A model generated the notes under the pieces. It was not told the DNA's origin, did no database searches, and saw only the letters and a program-made list of their open reading frames with translations. From an uncultured Cytophagales bacterium (GTDB lineage: Bacteria; Bacteroidota; Bacteroidia; Cytophagales; Amoebophilaceae), in NCBI GenBank assembly GCA_945947725.1, contig CAMEYY010000001.1:1-41492 (forward strand): a stretch of DNA of 41,492 nt, given 5' to 3'. This document shows, one piece after another, positions 11,929-40,562 of this stretch. The translations under genes were made by a program, and so were the position numbers. How positions within the stretch are numbered: the first letter of the stretch is position 1; each line of letters begins with the position of its first letter.

Positions 11929-13194
11929 ATGAAAAAAGTTGCTTTATTCAAACTTGGATTTTTGACAAGCATGTTATTAAATTGTGGTCTTCAAAATAAT
12001 CAAACTAAGAGATTATCATCTGACAATTTTGGAAATATAAAAAAAGATTTAAAAACTCGCGAAACTTACGTTCAGAGTCAAAATAATCAAAACGACCAAA
12101 AACAAACCTCGACAAAATTAAATCAAACTACATCTGTAACACTTATAGATCTTGAAAAAAAACTTAATGAAAATATACAGGAAATAGAAAATTTAAAAAC
12201 ACAATCTGCTCAACAACAAATAGATTCACAAGCATTGGAAACTCAAAAACAGAAACTTGAAAATTTTACAACAATACTTACAGATAAAGACAATCAGATT
12301 AAAGAATGTCAAACAAAAATAAATCAATTAAAATTAACAATCGAACAACAGAAGAATGATTTACTTCAACAGATTAATGATCAAAAAGAACAAATTGAAA
12401 ATGAAATTAAAAAAAAGGAGAAAAACATAAAAGCATCAGATACTACGGAAGAGTCAAAGGAAGAAAAATCTAAGAAAAAAGAAAAAGCTAAAAAAATTGA
12501 AACTTTACAACAAATCAATGATTTAAATGGAATTACAACTAAAACACAAGAACTTGAAAAACAACTTCAAGCTCAAAGACAAAAACTTACAAATCTTGAG
12601 AACGAATTTAAACAAAAGTTTGAAACTCAGAAAAAACAAATAGAGAGTGATAAAGAAAAATTAGAGACAATAAAAAATTTACAACAACAACAACAGAATA
12701 CAAATTCAGAAAATCTTAACAAGCAAAAAGACGAATTGGAAAAGTTAAAAAAAGAGATTCAGAGTGCAAAAGAAAAGACAACAGTAAAATCAGAGTCTAA
12801 GTGTAAAATATCAAAACAAGAACTTGAAACACTTAAAGCAGAACTTACCGAGAAGATTAATAAAAAAGCTGATCAAACTACTTTAACAGAATTAGAAAAT
12901 ATTATTAAAGAAAAATCAGAGACAATAAAAAATTTACAAAAACAAATTCAAGAACAGCAAGACGCTTTGAAAGATGTGCAAGTTCAAAAACAAAACCTTG
13001 AAAAATTAGAACAAAAACTAAAAGCTAATTTAGAGCAACTAAAAAAAGAATTTACAAAGAACAATAAGGAAAACAAACAAGCAACATCATCTCTGAACGC
13101 ACTTTTAAAACAGCAAACAATATTGGTAAATAATTTCCAACAAGATACTAACGAAAACCTTTCTCAATTGGATACAATAAAAAAAACAATTTGA
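11929..13194 (+). CDS. Q/N/K/E-rich coiled-coil lipoprotein, 5' part of a frameshifted longer gene
   Basis: Signal plus Cys (MKKVALFKLGFLTSMLLNC|G), followed by about 400 aa of heptad-like low-complexity sequence. It terminates just after an A8 run at 13179-13186. Confidence 0.7.
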   Translation: MKKVALFKLGFLTSMLLNCGLQNNQTKRLSSDNFGNIKKDLKTRETYVQSQNNQNDQKQTSTKLNQTTSVTLIDLEKKLNENIQEIENLKTQSAQQQIDSQALETQKQKLENFTTILTDKDNQIKECQTKINQLKLTIEQQKNDLLQQINDQKEQIENEIKKKEKNIKASDTTEESKEEKSKKKEKAKKIETLQQINDLNGITTKTQELEKQLQAQRQKLTNLENEFKQKFETQKKQIESDKEKLETIKNLQQQQQNTNSENLNKQKDELEKLKKEIQSAKEKTTVKSESKCKISKQELETLKAELTEKINKKADQTTLTELENIIKEKSETIKNLQKQIQEQQDALKDVQVQKQNLEKLEQKLKANLEQLKKEFTKNNKENKQATSSLNALLKQQTILVNNFQQDTNENLSQLDTIKKTI

Positions 13195-14097: not shown

Positions 14098-15669
14098 ATG
14101 AAACGAACCATTAACTTTTTTAAAATTATATTTTTAACCAATCTACCTTATAATTGTACAGTCAAAGAACCTGATAATGCATGCAATGAAACTTATCAAT
14201 CTCTCAAGAATTTGAAAAAACAAACTTCAATACAGATAGAAGATAATAATGATAGACAAACTCGTAATTTTGATAATTTCAAAAATGATTTTCAAGGGCA
14301 AATCAATAATGTTTTTATGCAACTGGACGAACAAAAAACAACTAATAACAACTTATCAAATGGTATTAAAACACAATTTAAAAAGGAAATAGAAGCACTT
14401 AAAACACAGCTTGGACAACAACAACAAAAGCTTAAACAACAAGATGAGACAATAGAAAAGTTAAATAATGAACTTAAAAATAAAGCTGACAACAATATAT
14501 TAGTTGATTTTGATGATCTTAAAAGTAAACTTAATGATCAAACAAAGGAATTAAATAATCTTAAAACACAACAACAAGAGCTTAAAACACAAAAAGAAAA
14601 TCTTGAAAATAAACTTAATGATGAAATAGATAAATTCAAAAATGAGCTTAATGAGCTTAAAGAAAAACTTATAAAACAAAATACGTCACTTGTAAATCAA
14701 AAAGAGGATATATATGAACAATTCAAAAAGCTAACAGATGATTTTAAAACTAAGTTTGAAGATTTAGCAAGTAAAATTAAAAACGAAAACGAACAAAAAT
14801 TAAACGATGTAACTAACTCAATTGTAAATGATATTAATGAACTAAATAAACAACTTACCGAACTGAGAAATCAAATAACGAGTATGAAATCTAACCTCAG
14901 TGAAAAAGTAGATCAAACCAAAATTGAGGAAATAAAAAAACAAATTCAAAAAGCTCTTAACGAGTACTTAGATGAGAAGGTAAACAATCTAGAAGAAATT
15001 AACACACAACAAAAACAAAAATTAGATGATCAAACAAAGGAATTAGATAATCTTAAAACACAACAACAAGAGCTTAAAACACAAAAAGAAAATCTTGAAA
15101 ATAAACTTAATGGTGAAATAGGAAAATTCAAAGATGAGCTTGATAAGTTTAAAAAACAACTTGACGAACAAAAGAACAATGCTGAATCGTTATTAGAAAA
15201 ACTAAACAAACAAGATGCAGAACTGAATGAACTAAAGAATGCACTTAAGGAAATAAAATTATTAGAAAGTAAAATCGAAGAATTGGGAAAAGACATTAAC
15301 CAACAAAAAGAAGATTTTAATAATCAATTTCAAAAACAAAATGAAACGCTTGGCAAGAAAGCTGACGAAGAGCAGCTTAACAATGAAATAAAACAACGAG
15401 AAGATGCACTTAACAATCAAACACATGATTTGTTTTGTGTTAAGGCTAAGATTTCTAATATATTATTAGGCATTTTGGATCTCTTTAGGAAAGATTTTAT
15501 AGCACTACAAGCAAAAATCAATGCAATACAAACAAATAAAAATAATACGAGTGTTAATCTAAATAGTTTGATGGGAAAAATTGAGGCGTTGGATAAGGAT
15601 CTTCAGAATCTTTTTGAAAGAAAAAAGGAAAATATTTTTGAAAACAGAAATGAAGGAGGTAATGAATAA
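14098..15669 (+). CDS. Q/N/K/E-rich coiled-coil lipoprotein paralog
   Basis: 523 aa, signal plus Cys (..FLTNLPYNC|T), coiled-coil composition. An internal direct repeat of ~110 bp occurs at 14536 and 15028. Confidence 0.7.
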   Translation: MKRTINFFKIIFLTNLPYNCTVKEPDNACNETYQSLKNLKKQTSIQIEDNNDRQTRNFDNFKNDFQGQINNVFMQLDEQKTTNNNLSNGIKTQFKKEIEALKTQLGQQQQKLKQQDETIEKLNNELKNKADNNILVDFDDLKSKLNDQTKELNNLKTQQQELKTQKENLENKLNDEIDKFKNELNELKEKLIKQNTSLVNQKEDIYEQFKKLTDDFKTKFEDLASKIKNENEQKLNDVTNSIVNDINELNKQLTELRNQITSMKSNLSEKVDQTKIEEIKKQIQKALNEYLDEKVNNLEEINTQQKQKLDDQTKELDNLKTQQQELKTQKENLENKLNGEIGKFKDELDKFKKQLDEQKNNAESLLEKLNKQDAELNELKNALKEIKLLESKIEELGKDINQQKEDFNNQFQKQNETLGKKADEEQLNNEIKQREDALNNQTHDLFCVKAKISNILLGILDLFRKDFIALQAKINAIQTNKNNTSVNLNSLMGKIEALDKDLQNLFERKKENIFENRNEGGNE

Positions 15670-20139: not shown

Positions 20140-21276
20140 ATGAAGTTAGAAATATCATCATCGTCATTGTACAAAAAAATAACGATGCTTGCAGGAGTTA
20201 TCAATGCTAAACCTTTAGTTGCTATATTGGAAGATTTTTTATTCTCTGTCAAAGATAACGTTTTATCTATTACTGCTTCCGATTTACAAACAACGATAAC
20301 GACAAAAATGAAAGTTCAAAACGCTGACGATTTCTCTGTTGCTATACCATCAAGGATTTTATTAGACACATTGAAAAATTTATCAAATCAAAATATTACC
20401 ATAATCTCGGAAGAAAAATGTAACAACATAACTATCAAATCAGATTTTGGTGAATATGTTATCGCTGGCCACAACGCTAATGAATTTCCAACAGTAACCA
20501 TCGATAATAATTTCGAAAACCAATTTACTTTCTCTGGGAAAAAATTAAAACGAGCATTACAAACTTGTTTCCCTATCTCTAGTAACGATGCGCTCAAACC
20601 TGCACTCAACAGTATTTATTTCGATTTTATTGATAATGAATTAATTTGTGTTTCAACAGACATACATAGATTGGTAAAATACGAACTCGTCGACGAAAAT
20701 ATTGCTCAAGCAAAATCTATTATCGTTCCTAAAAAATCTGTTCAACAACTTATCAACCTTATCGATGATGCCGAAGATTTACAAATTACGAATTATAATG
20801 GAAGAGTTTGTTTTTATCTCCATGAAGGAGCAACACAAATCATCGCGTCAACGATAAATGAGAAATTCCCTAGCTACGACACCGTTATCCCTCACAACTA
20901 TGCAAACATAATGACGATTTACCGTTTAGACCTAGTTGCTTCGTTAAAAAGGTTGATGATTTATACCAATGCTGTCTCTCATCAAATTCAATTTTCTATC
21001 GAAGACAACAAACTGACTATTTTAGCAGAGGAAGTTAATTGTGGAAATATGGCTGTTGAAACTATTCCTTGTTCTTATCGTGGTGTTCAACCTATGTCGA
21101 TAATGTTCAACGTTAAAATTTTATTAGATCTTTTGCAAAATATCGACTTCGATGAAATAACTTTTAAATTCTCTGATGTAGATGAAAATGGAAAATCAAA
21201 TAAAGCCGTCGTTATCTCACCAAACTCTGGCGATGAAGAGAAAATTACCTCATTGGTAATGCCTATCTATTCTTAA
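20140..21276 (+). CDS. dnaN: DNA polymerase III beta sliding clamp
   Basis: 378 aa. Typical N-terminus (MKLEISSSSL...VINAKP..ILEDFLF......L.ITASDLQ), three-domain length, C-terminal ..LVMPI. Confidence 0.9.
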   Translation: MKLEISSSSLYKKITMLAGVINAKPLVAILEDFLFSVKDNVLSITASDLQTTITTKMKVQNADDFSVAIPSRILLDTLKNLSNQNITIISEEKCNNITIKSDFGEYVIAGHNANEFPTVTIDNNFENQFTFSGKKLKRALQTCFPISSNDALKPALNSIYFDFIDNELICVSTDIHRLVKYELVDENIAQAKSIIVPKKSVQQLINLIDDAEDLQITNYNGRVCFYLHEGATQIIASTINEKFPSYDTVIPHNYANIMTIYRLDLVASLKRLMIYTNAVSHQIQFSIEDNKLTILAEEVNCGNMAVETIPCSYRGVQPMSIMFNVKILLDLLQNIDFDEITFKFSDVDENGKSNKAVVISPNSGDEEKITSLVMPIYS

Positions 21277-21280
21277 TTTT

Positions 21281-30937: not shown

Positions 30938-31049
30938 TTTTGCAAACTTTACTTTACTTATAGCAATTTTTTGAAGAATAACAGATTATAACATCCTTTT
31001 TTTTAGCTCTACATAGCGCCGTTTATCTAAAAATTAAAAACGAAAAAAA

Positions 31050-31107
31050 TAAGTTTAATTTTACTTGATTAATTCATTTTTGTGTCCGATGCTCTCGGCA
31101 TGAACAA
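31050..31107 (+). repeat. Conserved upstream-plus-start module, copy B (paralog of 38392-38449 on the minus strand)
   Basis: Gapless hand alignment gives 48/58 identical bases. This includes an exact GC-rich 17-mer GCTCTCGGCATGAACAA, with the ATG in the same register. Confidence 0.85.
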
Positions 31108-31276
31108 GAAAAATGTGTTCCTCAATTTATTGAGTATTTATGGGATGACGTTTGCCCAAGGTATAAGGAATACCGAAAATCAAAAGTTAGATTATAACGA
31201 TGTAATAATTAATGTTGATACAGAGCAATTACTAAAGCACGACGAGATGAATGTGTTTTGTGAAGATTGTTCATAG
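31100..31276 (+). CDS. Small 58-aa protein ending in CxxC, paralog of the 18-aa ORF beside the radical SAM gene
   Basis: MNKKNVFLNLLSIYGMTFAQGIRNTENQKLDYNDVIINVDTEQLLKHDEMNVFCEDCS. ATG at 31100, within the track ORF 31082..31276. TAG stop lies 2 nt before the next gene's ATG. Confidence 0.45.
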   Translation: MNKKNVFLNLLSIYGMTFAQGIRNTENQKLDYNDVIINVDTEQLLKHDEMNVFCEDCS

Positions 31277-31278
31277 AC

Positions 31279-32163
31279 ATGAAAAATTTTGATTTTTTTG
31301 TATTAGCCTTAGGTATTTGTAATTTATTTCCTTCTTGTAATTCTCGAAATTATTTAGCTGCAAATTATTCCAATGATGAAAAGTTTAGAGGTGTTCAAAA
31401 TATAACAATCAAAAATGGACCTGGTAATATTACAGTTCAACCTACAGCAGATGCTAATAACGATGAAACGATATTAGAATTAGAGGGTGAAGAGAGAGAT
31501 GAGGTGAATGTTAAGCAAGAAGGTTCCACACTTTTTGTGACGAGGCCAGGTAATCCTAATGAGGTATTATTTTATGCACCAAAACCTATAAATATAACGT
31601 TATACATTGCTCCTACTGTTAACTCTTTACAATGTAAAATGGGACGTGGAAAATTTTCAATGGATAATTTTATTGGGAATTTGAATTTGGAAGGGGGTAT
31701 TAGTGATATTTTTTTGAGAGATATTACAGGGTATATTAACTTAGACACAGGGAAATCCAAATTTAATATCGAAAATATAACCGGAAATATAGATATACAC
31801 TCTGGACCTATAGAACAAGGAAATTTTCAAAGAATATCAGGTAATGTCAACATAAGAGCCTCTCAATTTAATTTAGTTCTTTTTGAGATATTCGGAAATA
31901 TTAATCTAAGAGGTGCTGGGTTGTTGAATTATACAATGTTGACTAAACCAAATTTCCCAATATTTATAACGTTTAAAGGGAAAAATGTTTTTTGCAATGT
32001 TTATTTATCTAACGCTTTTCGCTGTATTGATAATACAATAAAAGGACGTCATAATAATATCTTTTCTATTTTTCCATACGTCTCGGGTATAAGAGCGATA
32101 GGTGATGTAAACTTTTGTGGAAATCTGCATGATAGTACATTGCAAATTCAAAATGTAAATTAA
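31279..32163 (+). CDS. Predicted lipoprotein with beta-helix-like GN(I/L/V)N repeats (DUF4097 / putative-adhesin-like)
   Basis: ATG at 31279 (MKNFDFFVLALGICNLFPSC|N). Repeats of roughly 20 aa: FIGNLNLEGG, ITGYINLDTG, ITGNIDIHSG, ISGNVNIRAS, IFGNINLRGA. Confidence 0.5.
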   Translation: MKNFDFFVLALGICNLFPSCNSRNYLAANYSNDEKFRGVQNITIKNGPGNITVQPTADANNDETILELEGEERDEVNVKQEGSTLFVTRPGNPNEVLFYAPKPINITLYIAPTVNSLQCKMGRGKFSMDNFIGNLNLEGGISDIFLRDITGYINLDTGKSKFNIENITGNIDIHSGPIEQGNFQRISGNVNIRASQFNLVLFEIFGNINLRGAGLLNYTMLTKPNFPIFITFKGKNVFCNVYLSNAFRCIDNTIKGRHNNIFSIFPYVSGIRAIGDVNFCGNLHDSTLQIQNVN

Positions 32164-32611
32164 TTTTTACTTGATTATTTTTTAATTTCTTGCATCTCTT
32201 GGTTTGAATAAGGATTATTTATTCAACATTATCTTCACTGTTCGATAGTCACTATCCTTTTCCTATTTAAAATTTGATACGACTTTTAGTTGAGTAAAAA
32301 CAACTTCAACGTAATAGCAATTGCATTTCTTGTTTATTCACTTTATTGCCCGTTAAAACGATCATGTACGATTTATTCGTTAAGATATCCAACTCTGTGT
32401 TTAAAATTTATAGTTAACATCATAATCTGCATAAATCATTTTTTTATTATAACATCCTTGTTTTTTTGTTAGTTAAAAATTGTCAAATACTATCATCAGC
32501 GTCAATATTTTTCCTCTTCAGAAAGCTCATGAGTTTTACACATTATGAGTCTATATGAAAAACTTTAAGATTTTTCTATTAAAATATTTTAAAATTTTAT
32601 CAACAAAAAAG

Positions 32612-32967
32612 TTATCCACATTTTATAAAAATAGGTCATAATAGACTGACAGATGAGAGGTTTGGTGAAAACGTAAAAAATTAAAATGTGGATAACTTTT
32701 AGAGACCTTCAAAAAATGTGGATAACTTTTTCAAAAATGTGGATAACTTAACAAAAAAATGTGGATAACTTTCCGTTTTTGCGCCCCGGCCGGCCCCGAA
32801 AATCCGCCGGCAATTGAAGGCTTTTGCACGTTTTTGTGGCAAAAAAATAAAAAAATGAAATTTTGATATATTTTTATTATTATAATAATAAAAAAAATTT
32901 TTTCTTCTTATAAGGGGGGTTTGGGGGGAAATTTCTTCTTTTTACATCTTGCAAAAAATGTGGATAA
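32612..32967. other. oriC-like region: six perfect DnaA boxes flanking an AT-rich tract
   Basis: TTATCCACA at 32612-32620. TGTGGATAA at 32687, 32717, 32738, 32760 and 32959, each inside the 16-mer AAAATGTGGATAACTT. Nearly pure A/T runs from about 32841 to 32912. Confidence 0.8.
32781..32811. other. GC island (26/31 G+C) inside the origin region
   Basis: gcgccccggccggccccgaaaatccgccggc, read directly. It contains the self-complementary cores CCGGCCGG and GCCGGC. Confidence 0.9.
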
Positions 32968-35409: not shown

Positions 35410-36468
35410 ATGAAAATAAAAAATGTATTATTGGTGATGTTGCCTACAGCTGTTTCTTCATGTGTGATTGAAAAACCTGTTGATTGTAGATGCAAGAAGA
35501 TAGATTATCCTGATGAAAATCTAAAAAAACAGTTAGAAGATATTAAAACAAATTTCGAAAAGGCTAGTAATGGAAATCTTTCAGATTTTATAAAGTTCGA
35601 AGAACAGATAATAGATAAAGTCAAAAAAGAAGACAATCGTATTAAGGATGAGAGCGGTAAACAGTTTACTAAATCTTTAAAGGATGAAAATACCTTGAAT
35701 GATTTAAAAAATAAGTTCGGAAATTTAGGGACTGCGATGTTTTTGGATTCTAATTTAAAGTTTTTCTTAAATCCTGTATATCAGGAAACAAATCGGAAAA
35801 CGAATTTTGTGAATGATTTCTTTAACAAACGTGATGAAATAAATAACAAAATTAATTCTGTTGCATGTAAGGATATAAAGGTTTCGCTTTTTGATGTTAA
35901 AAATTTAAAATTTGACGATTTATCTAAGATTTTTGATTTTGATTATAAATGTCAGGATTTGAATGAATGGTTTAAGTTGGTTTCTCTTTTCGGATATTAC
36001 TCTGTTGAAAATTTATTATTGCCTGTTGAATTTAAAGACGATAACGGAAATAACATCGGTAAAGGTTTCGTTTGTGATGGTTTAAATTGTATTCAGTGGG
36101 GACTTCTTTTTGAAAAGAATGTAAGTGAAGAGCGTCAAGAAAAATGTTTTAATACAATGAAGGAAATCTTTAAGAATGTTGTTTTGAAAGATAACACTAT
36201 TATTTCTAAAAAGATTAGATTCTTCTGTAATGAAAAATCTATTTGGGATAAATTGTCTGCTTTTTATAAAGAAAGTACAGACGAAATGTTTTTTCTTGAT
36301 AAACTTAAGGATTATTCTAAATGGTTTTGCCACTGCTGTTGTTATAACGATATTACCGATGAAAGATTTTTAAATTTTGGCTTTCCTTGTGTAGGCTTTG
36401 CTCAAAGAAATGGTTTATATTGTTGTAATTTTAGTGGTTCTTTAAAAAAATCAGCTACTACTGTCTAA
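35410..36468 (+). CDS. Predicted lipoprotein with Cys-rich C-terminus, unknown function
   Basis: 352 aa, signal plus Cys (..LPTAVSSC|V). The C-terminal ~60 aa contains WFCHCCCYND...FPCVGF...LYCCNFSG. Confidence 0.5.
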   Translation: MKIKNVLLVMLPTAVSSCVIEKPVDCRCKKIDYPDENLKKQLEDIKTNFEKASNGNLSDFIKFEEQIIDKVKKEDNRIKDESGKQFTKSLKDENTLNDLKNKFGNLGTAMFLDSNLKFFLNPVYQETNRKTNFVNDFFNKRDEINNKINSVACKDIKVSLFDVKNLKFDDLSKIFDFDYKCQDLNEWFKLVSLFGYYSVENLLLPVEFKDDNGNNIGKGFVCDGLNCIQWGLLFEKNVSEERQEKCFNTMKEIFKNVVLKDNTIISKKIRFFCNEKSIWDKLSAFYKESTDEMFFLDKLKDYSKWFCHCCCYNDITDERFLNFGFPCVGFAQRNGLYCCNFSGSLKKSATTV

Positions 36469-36542: not shown

Positions 36543-36890
36543 TTAAAACACAAACTTTGACAGTTCAATTAGGATAACTAAAATACCAAATAAAACACAT
36601 AGCTTATCACCAAAATCCATTTGTCGTTTTAATTTTTTTTTCAATAGGTAATAAGGAATAAAGATAACAAATACTGTCGCTATCATCCCACCGAACGAGA
36701 GTATGTTGATAAAGGCATTGGGAATCGCGATACACAAAACAATAGGAATAATACAAACAATAGCACTTGCTACAACCCTTGATTGAGAGATAGTCTCTTC
36801 TATAGATTTTTTCAAACCCAATCCTATACCAATGGTCGACGTTATGATAGCAAATAAACTCAATATTTTGAAAAATATTTCCATATACAT
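36543..36890 (-). pseudogene. C-terminal ~115-aa fragment resembling HAAAP-family (Mtr/TnaB/TyrP-type) aromatic amino acid permeases
   Basis: ..IAIPNAFINILSFGGMIATVFVIFIPYYLLKKKLKR.. parallels the remembered E. coli Mtr C-terminus ..[34 protein letters not shown]... Full-length family members are about 400-415 aa. An in-frame stop lies just upstream of the first Met. Confidence 0.45.
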
Positions 36891-37020
36891 GTTCTACACC
36901 ATCTTGTAGGCGCATTGATTCTATTGGTTATAGAGTTATTGTGGGGTATTTTTATAGCCGTGGAAAATATAAACATGTCATTATGTTTTAAGACAATAGA
37001 CTTATTGCGCAACAATAGGT

Positions 37021-38337
37021 TTATTGTTGAGAGAGTAAGTACGCAAGTAACATCTTCTCTTTTAGATTATACCTCGTTGTTGGACAAGGTAGATTTCCAT
37101 CCTGCCACTGTTTTGGGCAAGCTCCTGCACAAGTAGGAAATATCTTACATTTTCTACATGGAGAATCAGCGTCGGTAATCTTTTTAAATTTTTCAAACAC
37201 ATCTCTCGCTCTACATACTCCCATTTCTAAATCACCAATCTGATATTTATGTAAACCATTCTCTATATACGCATCAACTAAACCCACCTCGGAGCAAGGA
37301 AATAGATTGCCTTCAGGATCGGACATTATCGCATGTTCACTAGTATACAAACAACCATATTTTCGTTTTGGCAAAGGTTTCACTCTAAAACCTAGTTCTA
37401 TCAACTTCGACATTGCCTGGATCTCCAAGTTAGCAAATTCTTCTTGTTCTATAGCTTTTTCTCCTGCATCATTACCCCAATCATGAATAGGCGCAAGGTA
37501 AACAAAAAGATTTTTATATCTTTCCAAATGATCTGCATGTAAAATATCTATCAAATGAAAAATCGCCTCGCTATTCCTCATATCGACATTACATCTCAAT
37601 GTTACTTCAACTTCAGGATTATTTTCAACAATTTTCAAAAGACCTTTAAAGTTATTATACACGTCATCAAAAGTTCCTTGTTTCCCTTTCAGACAACGTC
37701 GTGCATTATGTTCTTCTGCGTTACCATCTATTGTTATTCCCCAAAAATTGATCTTGCATTTTTTTACACAAATATTGGCACGCTCCTCTGTTAATAAAGA
37801 AGCATTAGTTGCAATATGAGATACATATTTAACATTTTCTTCTTTACAAAGTTGTATCAATCTTGGAGCTAAACTTTCAATAACATCCAAAGCCAATATA
37901 GGTTCTCCTCCAAACCACCCTAAAAACAACTCTTCAAATTTTTTTGTTTGTAATTTCGTTTTAATATCTTCAAAAATACGATCTTGATTTTCTTTTGACA
38001 GTTTTACATTTTTATGATTTTGTCCACAATAATCACATCCAAAATTACAAGTTCCACTTACCATCACCACATATCTCAACGTCCTATTTACAAGAGTTTT
38101 ATTCTCTTCTAAAATTTCTTTAAACTCATCTACAGTATCGTTAACTAAAAAATCTTCCACGAAAGCTTGAGGTATTTTCTCAAGAGAGTTTCCATTTTGC
38201 AAAATCACGTTAATCTCTTCCCAAAAGACTTTTGAAACAATAGAGAGCTTACTATTCTTAGAATTAAAAATTGCTACTAAATCCTTATTATCTTTACAAA
38301 ACTCAACAGTTTCGACAAAATTCGATATTTTCAACAT
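37021..38337 (-). CDS. Radical SAM / SPASM-domain peptide-modifying enzyme with N-terminal RRE-like extension
   Basis: CNFGCDYC (Cx3Cx2C) at residues ~102-109 of the track ORF. C-terminal SPASM motif CRKCKIFPTCAGACP (Cx2Cx5Cx3C). About 95 aa precede the cluster, with a PqqD-like pattern (LVAIFNSKNSKLSIVSKVFWEEINVILQNGNSLEKI). ATG at 38337 preferred; GTG at 38352 is possible. Confidence 0.85.
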   Translation of the reverse strand: MLKISNFVETVEFCKDNKDLVAIFNSKNSKLSIVSKVFWEEINVILQNGNSLEKIPQAFVEDFLVNDTVDEFKEILEENKTLVNRTLRYVVMVSGTCNFGCDYCGQNHKNVKLSKENQDRIFEDIKTKLQTKKFEELFLGWFGGEPILALDVIESLAPRLIQLCKEENVKYVSHIATNASLLTEERANICVKKCKINFWGITIDGNAEEHNARRCLKGKQGTFDDVYNNFKGLLKIVENNPEVEVTLRCNVDMRNSEAIFHLIDILHADHLERYKNLFVYLAPIHDWGNDAGEKAIEQEEFANLEIQAMSKLIELGFRVKPLPKRKYGCLYTSEHAIMSDPEGNLFPCSEVGLVDAYIENGLHKYQIGDLEMGVCRARDVFEKFKKITDADSPCRKCKIFPTCAGACPKQWQDGNLPCPTTRYNLKEKMLLAYLLSQQ

Positions 38338-38342
38338 TTTAT

Positions 38343-38399
38343 TTATAAACACAAATCACAAAGATCATGTATTCTCGCAAATACACATTCTTTGTTCAT
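38343..38399 (-). CDS. Unannotated 18-aa Cys-rich ORF (MNKECVFARIHDLCDLCL), candidate precursor peptide
   Basis: My translation of the minus strand. ATG at 38399 and TAA at 38345-38343, 5 nt upstream of the radical SAM ATG. Too short for the ORF track. It has a paralog at 31100-31276. Confidence 0.45.
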   Translation of the reverse strand: MNKECVFARIHDLCDLCL

Positions 38400-38449
38400 G
38401 CCGAGAGCGTGAGATACAAAAAAGAATAAATCAAGAAAATATCAACTTA
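38392..38449 (-). repeat. Conserved upstream-plus-start module, copy A (paralog of 31050-31107)
   Basis: See copy B. It runs from the S41 stop codon to the first three codons of the 18-aa ORF. Confidence 0.85.
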
Positions 38450-39772
38450 TTTTTTATTACTTATCAATTCATAAACTTTATCCATCGCATCTTCCGCTTT
38501 AACTAAAATATCTGGAGTTAGTCGAGCAGGATCTTTTGTTGGATCAGGACGGTAAAATTTTTTAAAAGTCGTATGGAAGACCACGTGTGAATTAGGCAAA
38601 GAAAAATCTCCTGTACAATCACCAAAACTTTCCGGTGAATTGCCTGGGACCTCTCCTATGACAGTCGCTAAATTATTGTCGGAAAAATAGTATGCAAATA
38701 TTAATCCACTACTGAAAGTTAAATTAGAAGTCAAAATATAAAAGTTACCATCAAAAAGATTGTCCTTCGACATCCAATTTTTGAGTGCTTCTTCGTTTAT
38801 TTCCTCTTTATTATTTATTATTTTATTTCCATTTCGAACTTCACTTCTTCCACCTAACTTTTTACAATTTGGATATTTTTTTAAGTACTTTATAAAATAA
38901 TTTATAACACAACTATTTCCACCCCTGTTACGCCTCAAATCAACTACGATATTGTTTATGTTATCTTTTGCAACATCGACAAAGAAACCGTCAATCATAG
39001 GTGCGTAATCGGTTCTACAATCGTCCATCTTAAAAATTCCCAAATCATTTTCTTCATCAATGACGTACGACACTGGCGGAGCAGCAGTAAAATGCTTTTT
39101 TCTAAAAATTCTAAAAAATTGTTCCTTAACAATACCTTTATCTGTGTTAAAAGTTATCTCAACAGGCTTTGTCACATCAACACCCGATCGTGCTAAAATA
39201 TCAGCGCTTAAACATTTAGACCTTTCAAAGAAAATAGCATGAGCCCATTCTTCAATTTCATAAGACCAGTGTTGTTTGAAATTTTCATACAATTCAGAAA
39301 TCTTGACCCCGTTAACTTCCATTATCTCCGCGTCTTTAAATCTTCCACTATCACAGAAAATTTTATTACCTATATTACGAGTCTGAAAAGGTAGTTGTTT
39401 ACAATTTAAAAACTTAGGACAATAAGTAACAGAGTGTGCGTCATGTAATTTTTTTAGGATACGAGAAAGTATTTTCCAAACTTCTATAGTACTCGTATGA
39501 TCTTGCAAATTTGCAATTTCAACATCTCTCTGCTGCAAAACTTCTTGAGGTACTTCCTTGATACAACTCATGTGGTGTTGTTTGACTTTATTAATCGCAA
39601 AGTCGATATCTTCTATAACTTGTTGTTTCGTAAAAAATTCATTTTTTTTACTCTGGAGCAGTTTGACAGTCTTTGTCTTTCTTGTTGTCGATGTTTTATG
39701 TTTTATAACAATTCCAATGGAAGTTAAAAGTAATAAAGTAAAAGAGCCTAAGACTTGTTTACTGATTTTCAT
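38447..39772 (-). CDS. S41 family serine peptidase (C-terminal-processing-protease-like), membrane anchored
   Basis: I prefer the ATG at 39772 (MKISKQVLGSFTLLLLTSIGIV). Motifs are VVDLRRNRGGNS and LTSNLTFSSGLIFA (catalytic Ser region). Confidence 0.8.
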   Translation of the reverse strand: MKISKQVLGSFTLLLLTSIGIVIKHKTSTTRKTKTVKLLQSKKNEFFTKQQVIEDIDFAINKVKQHHMSCIKEVPQEVLQQRDVEIANLQDHTSTIEVWKILSRILKKLHDAHSVTYCPKFLNCKQLPFQTRNIGNKIFCDSGRFKDAEIMEVNGVKISELYENFKQHWSYEIEEWAHAIFFERSKCLSADILARSGVDVTKPVEITFNTDKGIVKEQFFRIFRKKHFTAAPPVSYVIDEENDLGIFKMDDCRTDYAPMIDGFFVDVAKDNINNIVVDLRRNRGGNSCVINYFIKYLKKYPNCKKLGGRSEVRNGNKIINNKEEINEEALKNWMSKDNLFDGNFYILTSNLTFSSGLIFAYYFSDNNLATVIGEVPGNSPESFGDCTGDFSLPNSHVVFHTTFKKFYRPDPTKDPARLTPDILVKAEDAMDKVYELISNKK

Positions 39773-39782
39773 AATAATAGTT

Positions 39783-40562
39783 TTAAAAAAGTTTTTTTCT
39801 ATTAACAATTTTTAGATATAAATAAGCAATTAAAATTCCGCAGAGATGGACGAGATGAGCGACATTATCACCAGGATTGGACTGGAAGCTAGCGTGTAAT
39901 TCATACAAACCATAAAAGACGACAAAATATCGAGCTTCGACAGGAATAGGAAATAACAATAAACCTATTTTTGTATGTGGAAATAGGAAAGCGAAAGCTC
40001 CCAAGAGTCCAAAGATAGCTCCAGAAGCTCCAACAATAGGAACATCAAATTTTAACGAACATATGTGTTTTAAAATAGCAATACTTTTATCTACCAATGC
40101 AGGGTTTGTAGCATCATGAGAGAAATCGTAAATGAACTCATAATATGCATTGTACATCAACTCGTAATGATTTTTCAGAAAATTGCTAAAGAGTTCAGGT
40201 GTAGGATTTAAAATGTATTGATTATAAAAATCCAAATTAGCATTTCCGAAATACAGGTATACAAGATATAAAATCGAAGCACCGATTCCTGCTGTAAGGT
40301 AAAGACCAGTAAATTTTTTCGATGATAAGGTATTTTCTAAAATAGGTCCAAAAGTACACAACGTAAGCATGTTACTAAAGAGATGTGAAAAGTTAGCATG
40401 GACGAAGAGATGTGTTAAAATTTGGTACGGTCTAAAATAATTTGAGTGTAGATCTCGCAGCCCAAAAATACGGATGAGATCTATATGCAAGAAACTCGTC
40501 ACCAGGTAAACACACAGATTGATGATGAGAATTTTTTTGACGACAGGACTTAACTTAAACAT
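39783..40562 (-). CDS. Rhomboid family intramembrane serine protease
   Basis: 259 aa, polytopic. HLFVHANFSHLFSNM, catalytic GASGAIFG, and AHLVHLCG. Confidence 0.85.
   Translation of the reverse strand: MFKLSPVVKKILIINLCVYLVTSFLHIDLIRIFGLRDLHSNYFRPYQILTHLFVHANFSHLFSNMLTLCTFGPILENTLSSKKFTGLYLTAGIGASILYLVYLYFGNANLDFYNQYILNPTPELFSNFLKNHYELMYNAYYEFIYDFSHDATNPALVDKSIAILKHICSLKFDVPIVGASGAIFGLLGAFAFLFPHTKIGLLLFPIPVEARYFVVFYGLYELHASFQSNPGDNVAHLVHLCGILIAYLYLKIVNRKKLF

Follow-up and report, generated by a model that had tools for sequence, protein, structure and literature searches.

In Streptococcus orisratti, the radical S-adenosylmethionine (rSAM) enzyme NxxcB joins Cys23 of NxxcA to the β-carbon of Asn20 within an NxxC motif, forming a β-thioether (Caruso et al. 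2019, reviewed in PMC8326336 and PMC9389541). Together with CteB, the maturase of the SCIFF thioether ranthipeptides, the TIGR04463 and Clo7bot (TIGR04334) families, and the PapB/freyrasin type, it is among the described systems closest to the one reported here, which was found on a contig of an uncultured Cytophagales bacterium (CAMEYY010000001.1, assembly GCA_945947725.1). The whole 41,492-nucleotide stretch that was analysed is referred to as the window. It encodes a predicted maturase of ribosomally synthesized peptides that undergo post-translational modification (RiPPs) with an N-terminal RiPP recognition element (RRE) and a SPASM domain (gene C), a 58-amino acid (aa) precursor peptide (gene A), and a predicted lipoprotein (gene B). 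A first-pass annotation had singled out four minus-strand genes, namely a rhomboid gene, an S41 peptidase gene, an 18-codon open reading frame (ORF), and gene C, as a candidate peptide-modification locus. We consider it probable that A, B, and C are instead the components of a peptide-maturation system that was split by rearrangement, with C acting in trans on the distal A, the 18-codon ORF being a relic, and the S41 and rhomboid genes not belonging to the system.

Protein C contains the Fe-S cluster motif C97-x3-C101-x2-C104, unchanged in all 28 aligned homologs, and seven cysteines in the arrangement C329-x13-G343-x4-C348, C394-x2-C397-x5-C403-x3-C407, and C418, which are likewise invariant in these homologs and follow the pattern that defines a SPASM domain with two auxiliary clusters (CX9-15GX4C ... 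CX2CX5CX3C ... C). Pfam model PF04055 matched C with 39.8 bits (gathering score, 29.5), which places it in the radical SAM superfamily, and the seven invariant cysteines, together with a fold like those of CteB and the anaerobic sulfatase-maturating enzyme (anSME), place it in the SPASM subfamily. Among the NCBIfam models, the best match was TIGR04463 (200.6 bits; cutoff, 525), followed by the models for the Clo7bot maturase (TIGR04334; 168.8 bits; cutoff, 600), CefB (134.9 bits; cutoff, 600), FlmE/OhkG (120.7 bits; cutoff, 500), PapB (107.2 bits; cutoff, 340), anSME (TIGR03942; 62 bits; cutoff, 349), and the SCIFF maturase (TIGR03974; 55.3 bits; cutoff, 425); a weak match to the QhpD model was also obtained. 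All of these NCBIfam scores are far below the respective cutoffs. The models of RiPP rSAM/SPASM maturases were aligned with C nearly end to end, the N-terminal domain included, and in the best models residues 28–436 fell on model positions 14–426 of 438.

The AlphaFold2 (AF2) model of C, built from the 28 homologs, has a mean predicted local distance difference test score (pLDDT) of 91.9. In this model, residues 2–83 form three strands (residues 8–15, 18–25, and 30–35) and three helices (36–48, 57–63, and 71–83) in front of the rSAM barrel, with pLDDT values of 89–96 over residues 1–90. This is the topology by which an RRE was recognized, i.e. an N-terminal winged helix-turn-helix of three strands and three helices. 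The top Foldseek match in the PDB was CteB (5WGG/5WHY; E = 4e-18), covering the full length with ~488 aligned columns, and the next were anSME, TigE, ChlB, and SuiB. On the predicted fold and the full-length NCBIfam matches, C is modelled to carry an N-terminal RRE, and it is an RRE-rSAM/SPASM peptide maturase and not an anSME. This agrees with the first-pass annotation, which had read both cysteine motifs from the sequence, had placed the Fe-S motif at about residue 100 behind an RRE-like segment (it starts at residue 97), and had assigned the enzyme to the same type without recognizing a product family; the system is indeed uncharacterised. An exact look-up of the window protein returned no record. 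Pairwise comparisons of gene C with those of L005, L006, and L001 (members of a comparison set of 174 fetched loci, labelled L001–L174) gave dN/dS values of 0.06–0.11, the value for L005 being 0.106 at a dS of 0.55. Gene C is therefore under purifying selection (dN/dS about 0.1), and this low ratio, together with that of the intact precursor gene (about 0.2), supports a functional enzyme that works in trans on the distal precursor.

In a large protein collection, the close relatives of C were those of L005 (89% identity), L006 (81%), and L001 (77%); a few others shared 40–63% identity, followed by hundreds at about 35% or less. The genes A, B, and C are contiguous in L001, L003, L004, and L167, the rSAM proteins of which are 77, 44, 40, and 51% identical to C, respectively. 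In these four loci, one to four copies of an ORF of 59–65 aa lie upstream of the rSAM gene, as does a gene for a protein of 232–275 aa, and in L006 a 59-aa ORF stops 5 nt before the rSAM start codon. The expectation of the first-pass annotation that homologs of the enzyme would lie beside short Cys-containing peptides was thus borne out in the related loci.

Searching the window with the peptides of the relatives identified an intact precursor gene (A) outside the interval to which the first-pass annotation referred. Its product is 74% identical to the L006 peptide, whose gene ends 5 nt before that of the 81%-identical rSAM protein, and 50–63% identical to the three copies in L001. The peptide ends in ...DEMNVFCEDCS, with the putative core N51-x-x-C54-x-x-C57-S58, and has the conserved leader motif FLNLLSxYG near its N-terminus; the peptides of the clade share MNKK-x-(V/L)FLNLLSxYG at the N-terminus, whereas the leader conservation in the wider enzyme family is KLxxLL. 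All 10 intact clade precursors end in an invariant N-x-x-C-x-x-C plus one or two further residues. A search of 1.84 billion representative proteins returned only five clusters matching the precursor at E ≤ 1e-10, and DEMNxFCExC is kept by every additional representative cluster that extends to the C-terminus. The clade precursors thus offer a putative Cys donor and Asn acceptor at the fixed N-x-x-C spacing that characterizes ranthipeptide/NxxC precursors, and precursor A matched no curated family. The dN/dS of gene A is about 0.2.

Gene B begins two bases past the stop codon of A. The product is 40% identical to the L001 protein encoded between the precursor and rSAM genes and has orthologs in L003, L004, and L167. 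An invariant Cys20 closes its hydrophobic N-terminus, suggesting that B is probably a lipoprotein; besides this lipobox cysteine, no conserved Cys motif was found in the partner proteins. The Pfam model DUF4097 (PF13349) matched B with 20.8 bits, just under the gathering score of 22.9, and the L004 ortholog with 31.3 bits, and the LiaG model gave E-values of 1.9e-4 and 3.9e-8 for partner proteins. The AF2 model of B is an all-β structure with a β-solenoid (mean pLDDT, 70.9; well >90 across most of residues 110–220), which weakly matched the ‘putative adhesin’ β-helix structures 3LYC, 4QRK, 4YGU, and 3PET (E = 8.5e-6; TM-scores, 0.3–0.5). Only five proteins matched B in a word-indexed search, and a full-text literature search returned no paper with both toastrack and radical SAM.

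The features of the system and of its surroundings are listed in the table below.

Table. Positions of the features of the peptide-maturation system and of adjoining genes in the window
Feature	Position	Strand	Basis
Conserved precursor upstream element, AAAAAATAAGTTTAATTTTACTTGATTAATTCATTTTTGTGTCCGATGCTCTCGGC	31044–31099	+	Alignment with L001, L005, L174, and the spacer before gene C
Precursor peptide gene A, 58 aa, MNKKNVFLNLLSIYGMTFAQGIRNTENQKLDYNDVIINVDTEQLLKHDEMNVFCEDCS	31100–31276	+	tblastn with the peptides of relatives
Partner gene B, 294 aa, predicted lipoprotein, toastrack/DUF4097-like β-solenoid	31279–32163	+	Homology, Pfam, AF2
Second precursor relic, element plus decayed start TTG-NKDYLFNIIFTVR-stop	32160–32250	+	Alignment to the element and the first ~15 codons of the precursor
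Trp/Tyr permease 3′ fragment, 115-aa C-terminal part (context only)	36543–36890	-	PF03222, positions 272–371 of 393
Gene C, RRE-rSAM/SPASM peptide maturase, 438 aa	37021–38337	-	PF04055, NCBIfam models, AF2, Foldseek
18-codon ORF, MNKECVFARIHDLCDLCL	38343–38399	-	Internally deleted precursor paralog (relic)
Element copy before the rSAM relic	38400–38458	-	5′ end overlaps the S41 stop codon
S41-family peptidase gene, N-terminal membrane anchor	38447–39772	-	PF03572, 51.1 bits; ATG start, MKISKQ
Rhomboid-family intramembrane protease gene	39783–40562	-	PF01694, 83.8 bits

The order, strand, and spacing of the four minus-strand genes are as the first-pass annotation had given them: 10 nt separate the rhomboid stop codon from the S41 gene, 47 nt the S41 gene from the 18-codon ORF, and 5 nt this ORF from gene C, which starts at an ATG (438 aa) as in its homologs (an alternative upstream GTG would give 443 aa). 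Eighteen codons within a 94-nt AT-rich spacer mean little by length alone, and the ORF stands out beyond chance because the spacer is homologous to the precursor gene. Aligning this spacer at the DNA level with gene A and with the corresponding regions of L001, L005, and L006 showed that it retains the precursor upstream element, including its core TTTWCTTGATTWATT, and CTCTCGGC-ATG. The first seven and the last nine precursor codons survive in frame in the ORF, and ~120 nt between them are gone. The encoded peptide keeps the MNK..VF start and the LCDLCL-stop end and is devoid of residues 8–47 of the intact peptide; it has no conserved leader (LNLLSxYG onwards), and the invariant Asn is replaced by His. 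L005, with the 89%-identical rSAM protein, has another relic of 30 codons at the equivalent site, with an identical left deletion edge and with the first Cys of CxxC lost, so that one invariant residue is missing from each relic. Such stepwise, lineage-specific deletion fits the behaviour of unselected sequence. From these alignments, the 18-codon ORF, which the first-pass annotation had taken for the substrate peptide, is a deletion relic of a precursor gene and very probably not a working substrate.

The upstream element (AAAAAATAAnTTnAATTTTACTTGATTAATTCATTTTTGTnTnCnATGCTnTCGGC, ~55 nt) lies before every precursor copy and relic (31044–31099, 32164–32203, and 38400–38458 in the window; 1180–1240, 1440–1500, and 1815–1860 in L001), and in the window its core is found at 31060, 32166, and 38425. 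At gene C, sequences of L001 and L005 match 38455–38379, and L174 2678–2743 matches 38457–38392. The A-rich 5′ end of the element provides the stop codon of any gene upstream (S41 or the partner). Judging from its conservation, the element upstream of the precursor is probably a promoter/5′ leader, and the copy at 38400–38458 probably now serves as the promoter/5′ region of the rSAM gene. Scans of the window for sigma-70 promoters and terminators gave results at chance level that are uninformative for a Bacteroidota genome. A match of L005 to 32133–32181 was considered as a remnant of the partner gene upstream of the relic and was rejected, as it reflects the shared upstream element.

The split of the system was traced by comparison with L171, L172, and L174, which share ~91% nucleotide identity with the window over the H+-pyrophosphatase (H+-PPase) region. 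In these loci the order is A, B, a spacer of ~1 kb, H+-PPase, an intact permease gene, GldH, and ThyA. The permease is 379–401 aa long in L171 and L172, whereas the window gene corresponds to residues 287–401 only, and the homology to the three loci stops at 36893–36895, inside the permease gene. The truncated permease that the first-pass annotation had noted beside the cluster (it matches PF03222 only over positions 272–371 of 393) is, by this comparison, the mark of a breakpoint of rearrangement that lies directly downstream of gene C. A 1.5-kb region of the window (36956–38458) matches L005 1100–2653, so that the homology of the rSAM module ends at 36956; the upstream neighbour of this module in L005 is dnaN, which is located at 20240–21278 in the window. 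The module formed by the relic and the rSAM gene is therefore bounded by breakpoints.

The window has six perfect DnaA boxes (TTATCCACA), against 0.43 expected by chance, and all of them are clustered at 32612–32967, between B and H+-PPase; L171, L172, and L174 share this conserved cluster of six. The region is probably oriC, judging from this cluster. The conservation of the spacer between B and H+-PPase is attributable to the DnaA boxes, and an Rfam scan of the spacer yielded nothing credible. The A-B pair (plus strand) and C (minus strand) flank the cluster about 6 kb apart and are both transcribed toward it; as the DnaA boxes lie to the left of the minus-strand genes, the statement in the first-pass annotation that these genes are head-on to replication is geometrically right. 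Its proposal of secondary acquisition fared less well. The GC content of the rSAM module (32.4%) is unremarkable beside that of the window (31.4%), which argues against recent foreign acquisition, and the relatives carry A and B by the same DnaA-box cluster together with an intact permease gene. The split is better described as a rearrangement affecting a system that is native to the lineage. An origin by a single inversion was rejected, since it would flip the oriC-PPase block, yet the orientation of this block equals that in L171, L172, and L174. GC skew was also rejected, as not decisive, in the search for evidence of a recent inversion, because throughout the window it is governed mainly by coding-strand bias.

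The S41 and rhomboid genes are both absent from the four complete A-B-C clusters, and in the other fetched loci neither was present in the 4–7 kb around the enzyme gene. tblastn searches of the 174 loci with the window proteins detected no rhomboid homolog and, for S41, no flanking homolog except for one weak, distant match in L089 (22.5% identity; E = 6e-6) located several kb off and short 3′ remnants in three loci. The rhombosortase model (TIGR03902) scored 32.1 bits on the window rhomboid, below its cutoff of 84. The suggestion that these proteins act as processing proteases thus found no co-occurrence with the enzyme beyond these matches, and on the gene content of the related loci we regard them as neighbours and not as conserved components. 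The remnants, of ~20 codons (PDIQVKVEDAINKV*ELI), directly follow B in L171 (936–1166), L172 (817–1047), and L174 (3921–3974; 14/18 residues identical); their E-values are individually weak, and their position is equal in the three loci. Behind each remnant lies a precursor upstream element in decayed form.

In the reconstruction that we favour, the ancestral unit would have consisted of one or more genes for precursors of ~60 aa (A), a toastrack-like lipoprotein (B), and the RRE-rSAM/SPASM maturase (C). The 18-codon ORF would be the remainder of a precursor copy that once preceded C, and its surviving pieces probably carry the promoter and translation-start context of C and not a substrate. 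The RRE, as modelled, may bind the conserved leader of the 58-aa peptide, and the rSAM core and the two auxiliary SPASM clusters would then cross-link the invariant N51-x-x-C54-x-x-C57. A Cys-to-Asn (or Asp/Glu) thioether of the ranthipeptide/NxxcB type is, by analogy, the likeliest product, because CteB is the best structural match. Since the peptide has a signal-like N-terminus and B is a probable lipoprotein, the modified peptide may end up in the cell envelope with B. The S41 and rhomboid genes and the permease fragment would be neighbours brought in by the rearrangement.

Three other explanations were weighed against this reconstruction. It is very unlikely that the 18-aa Cys peptide is the rSAM substrate, that S41 and perhaps rhomboid process it, and that the four minus-strand genes form one operon. 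Such an arrangement would be in keeping with the shared strand and the 10/47/5-nt spacings, with the start codon and the in-frame C-terminal CxxC followed by one residue, as in intact precursors, and with the S41/upstream-element junction that the window seems to have in common with L171, L172, and L174. However, the ORF is internally deleted and has neither the conserved leader nor the invariant Asn, and in L005, the closest relative, the relic is a different one, its CxxC is broken, and dnaN instead of S41 lies upstream. Moreover, neither protease gene occurs in the four complete clusters (elsewhere, only the weak L089 match was found), and an intact precursor is present elsewhere in the window. 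The presence of two precursor relics, the truncated permease adjoining the rSAM gene, the split rSAM ORFs of L167 and L168, and a low-GC genome with frequent rearrangement around the origin could also be taken to mean that the system is dying here, i.e. that the orphaned rSAM enzyme matures nothing and that the precursor-lipoprotein pair is on its way out as well. We consider this unlikely, given that A, B, and C are all intact with all Fe-S cysteines of C kept, that the dN/dS values of the rSAM gene (0.106 between two relic-bearing lineages) and of the precursor gene are low, and that the upstream element has been retained before the rSAM gene. It is highly improbable that C, like anSME or QhpD, acts on a protein, such as the lipoprotein partner or another envelope protein, and not on a small peptide. 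Structures of anSME rank among the top fold matches of C, the anSME and QhpD models match it weakly, and some ‘precursors’ of the wider family are secreted proteins of 110–130 aa; but C has an N-terminal RRE-like domain that anSME does not have, its full-length matches to RiPP maturase models are far stronger, it strictly adjoins short peptides with an invariant C-terminal motif in the relatives, and partner B has no conserved Cys motif besides the lipobox Cys.

Several observations weigh against the split three-component system itself. The Pfam check suggested by the first-pass annotation succeeded only for the radical SAM domain (PF04055, 39.8 bits), and the PqqD and SPASM models gave no match to C at E ≤ 0.1. 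CteB is also the best sequence-profile match of C in the PDB, but this alignment begins only at residue 88. Action in trans would have to bridge 6 kb between genes on opposite strands. The relic still has its start codon and a CxxC in frame, so that a minimal peptide made from it is conceivable. The remnants after B in L171, L172, and L174 imply that S41 stood beside a precursor copy before those lineages split. The rSAM ortholog is split in L167 (1418–2740; 301 and 126 aa) and L168 (1–1258; 53 and 370 aa), which may represent either decay or an assembly error in low-coverage contigs. Finally, the N..C motif was found in only 26 of 85 loci of the wider family. Even with these points taken into account, the split three-component system remains the probable explanation.

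In the wider family of enzymes sharing ~35% identity with C, the motif N..C.{2,4}C is ~12-fold enriched in small ORFs that lie just upstream of the enzyme gene (35/557 vs 51/9529), as exemplified by a C-terminal NVACDSGC in planctomycetes and by N(V/F)xCNGxC in cyanobacterial precursors of 110–120 aa with signal peptides. The precursors in L008–L020 and L039 (cyanobacteria) are 98–129 aa long, carry clear signal peptides of the Sec type, and contain N(V/F)xCNGxC internally, and those of L014 (a planctomycete metagenome-assembled genome, MAG) and L017 end in N(V/I)ACD(S/T)(G/S)C. From their sequences, the wider-family precursors look like secreted peptides subject to radical SAM modification, of which no description was found in the literature searched. 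A different accessory set within the same enzyme family was observed in L169 (3749–7337) and L170, in which the gene for a 35%-identical rSAM protein comes after that for a 71-aa peptide (...FNSGCGGSS...) and before those for a 356-aa protein with no Pfam match and a JmjC_2 (cupin oxygenase) protein.

Scans of genomes and metagenomes with the rSAM alignments yielded ~35%-identical relatives only and no close member of the clade, so that eight Logan/ENA/JGI contigs are the only ones from which it is known. The GC contents of all clade loci are 29–38%. The MnmG protein of the window shares 83% identity with its counterpart in a Cytophagales MAG and 60% with the one in Candidatus Amoebophilus, and L003, which carries GapR, presumably derives from an alphaproteobacterium, given the known distribution of that family. 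The triad has so far been found only in such rare low-GC bacteria, i.e. a Cytophagales lineage, uncultured and related to amoeba symbionts, and the GapR-carrying lineage.

Two further parts of the window may be mentioned. At 35410–36468 (+), a 352-aa lipoprotein-like ORF (MKIKNVLLVMLPTAVSSC...), Cys-rich at its C-terminal end (KWFCHCCCYND...LYCCNF), matched no Pfam or NCBIfam model; only its last ~48 codons are present in L171 and L172, indicating an insertion in the window or a deletion in those loci. Two large ORFs at 11929–13194 and 14098–15669 (+) lie in a stretch with a very low GC content (24–26%) and a strong AT skew (0.29–0.46). They gave no convincing Pfam match, only a sub-threshold one to Baculo_PEP_C, and may encode low-complexity or coiled-coil proteins.

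The locus is of interest as a member of a rare, uncharacterised rSAM/SPASM clade with a clean and testable substrate motif, N-x-x-C-x-x-C at the C-terminus, and with a toastrack-like lipoprotein as an unusual conserved partner. It also calls for caution in annotation: the small Cys ORF upstream of the maturase resembles a textbook precursor and yet is a relic, and the probable true substrate gene, 6 kb off on the other strand, would be missed by neighbourhood tools such as RODEO or antiSMASH. The case documents operon fission and the stepwise loss of redundant precursor copies beside the probable replication origin of a low-GC genome. Tentatively, the precursor-lipoprotein-maturase triad may represent an undescribed class of cross-linked peptides, ~60 aa long with a signal-like leader and an invariant C-terminal (D/E)x(M/W)NxxCxxC, which would be matured by an RRE-rSAM/SPASM enzyme and handed over to a dedicated toastrack lipoprotein in the envelope. 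If so, its distribution would point to spread between host-associated bacteria and to a function on the cell surface, for example in interaction with a host, binding of metals, or signalling in the envelope, rather than to a classical bacteriocin.

Compared with known systems, the one in the window is a rare, uncharacterised variant within the RiPP systems of the RRE-rSAM/SPASM type. The TIGR04463 and Clo7bot families are like C in their RRE, rSAM, and SPASM architecture and provide the best curated models, with nearly full-length alignments, but C scores far under both cutoffs (200.6 against 525 bits and 168.8 against 600 bits), and A belongs to no curated family. To our knowledge, a lipoprotein partner is not a feature of either family; a literature search for TIGR04463 found nothing, and one for OhkG/FlmE brought up only irrelevant results. 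The common core fold of rSAM and SPASM domains links C with anSME as well, but anSME has no counterpart of the ~90-residue N-terminal domain, and no sulfatase context was seen near C. The PapB/freyrasin type matches C at the domain level over residues 96–414, and the core of A contains Cys together with acidic residues (D48, E49, E55, and D56); C is nevertheless under the PapB cutoff, and A has none of the repeated Cx3D motifs. CteB resembles C over the RRE, the rSAM barrel, and the seven-Cys SPASM domain, but the two share only 18% sequence identity and the SCIFF model scores far under its cutoff; furthermore, the SCIFF precursor has six Cys in about 45 residues, whereas precursor A has two Cys at its extreme C-terminus. 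Precursor A shares with NxxcA the exact N-x-x-C spacing that is cross-linked there, and both enzymes are SPASM-type rSAM proteins, a likeness of motif and type only. The host is different, and the locus in the window has no shp/rgg context, while it adds a second invariant Cys (N-x-x-C-x-x-C-COOH) and a lipoprotein partner.

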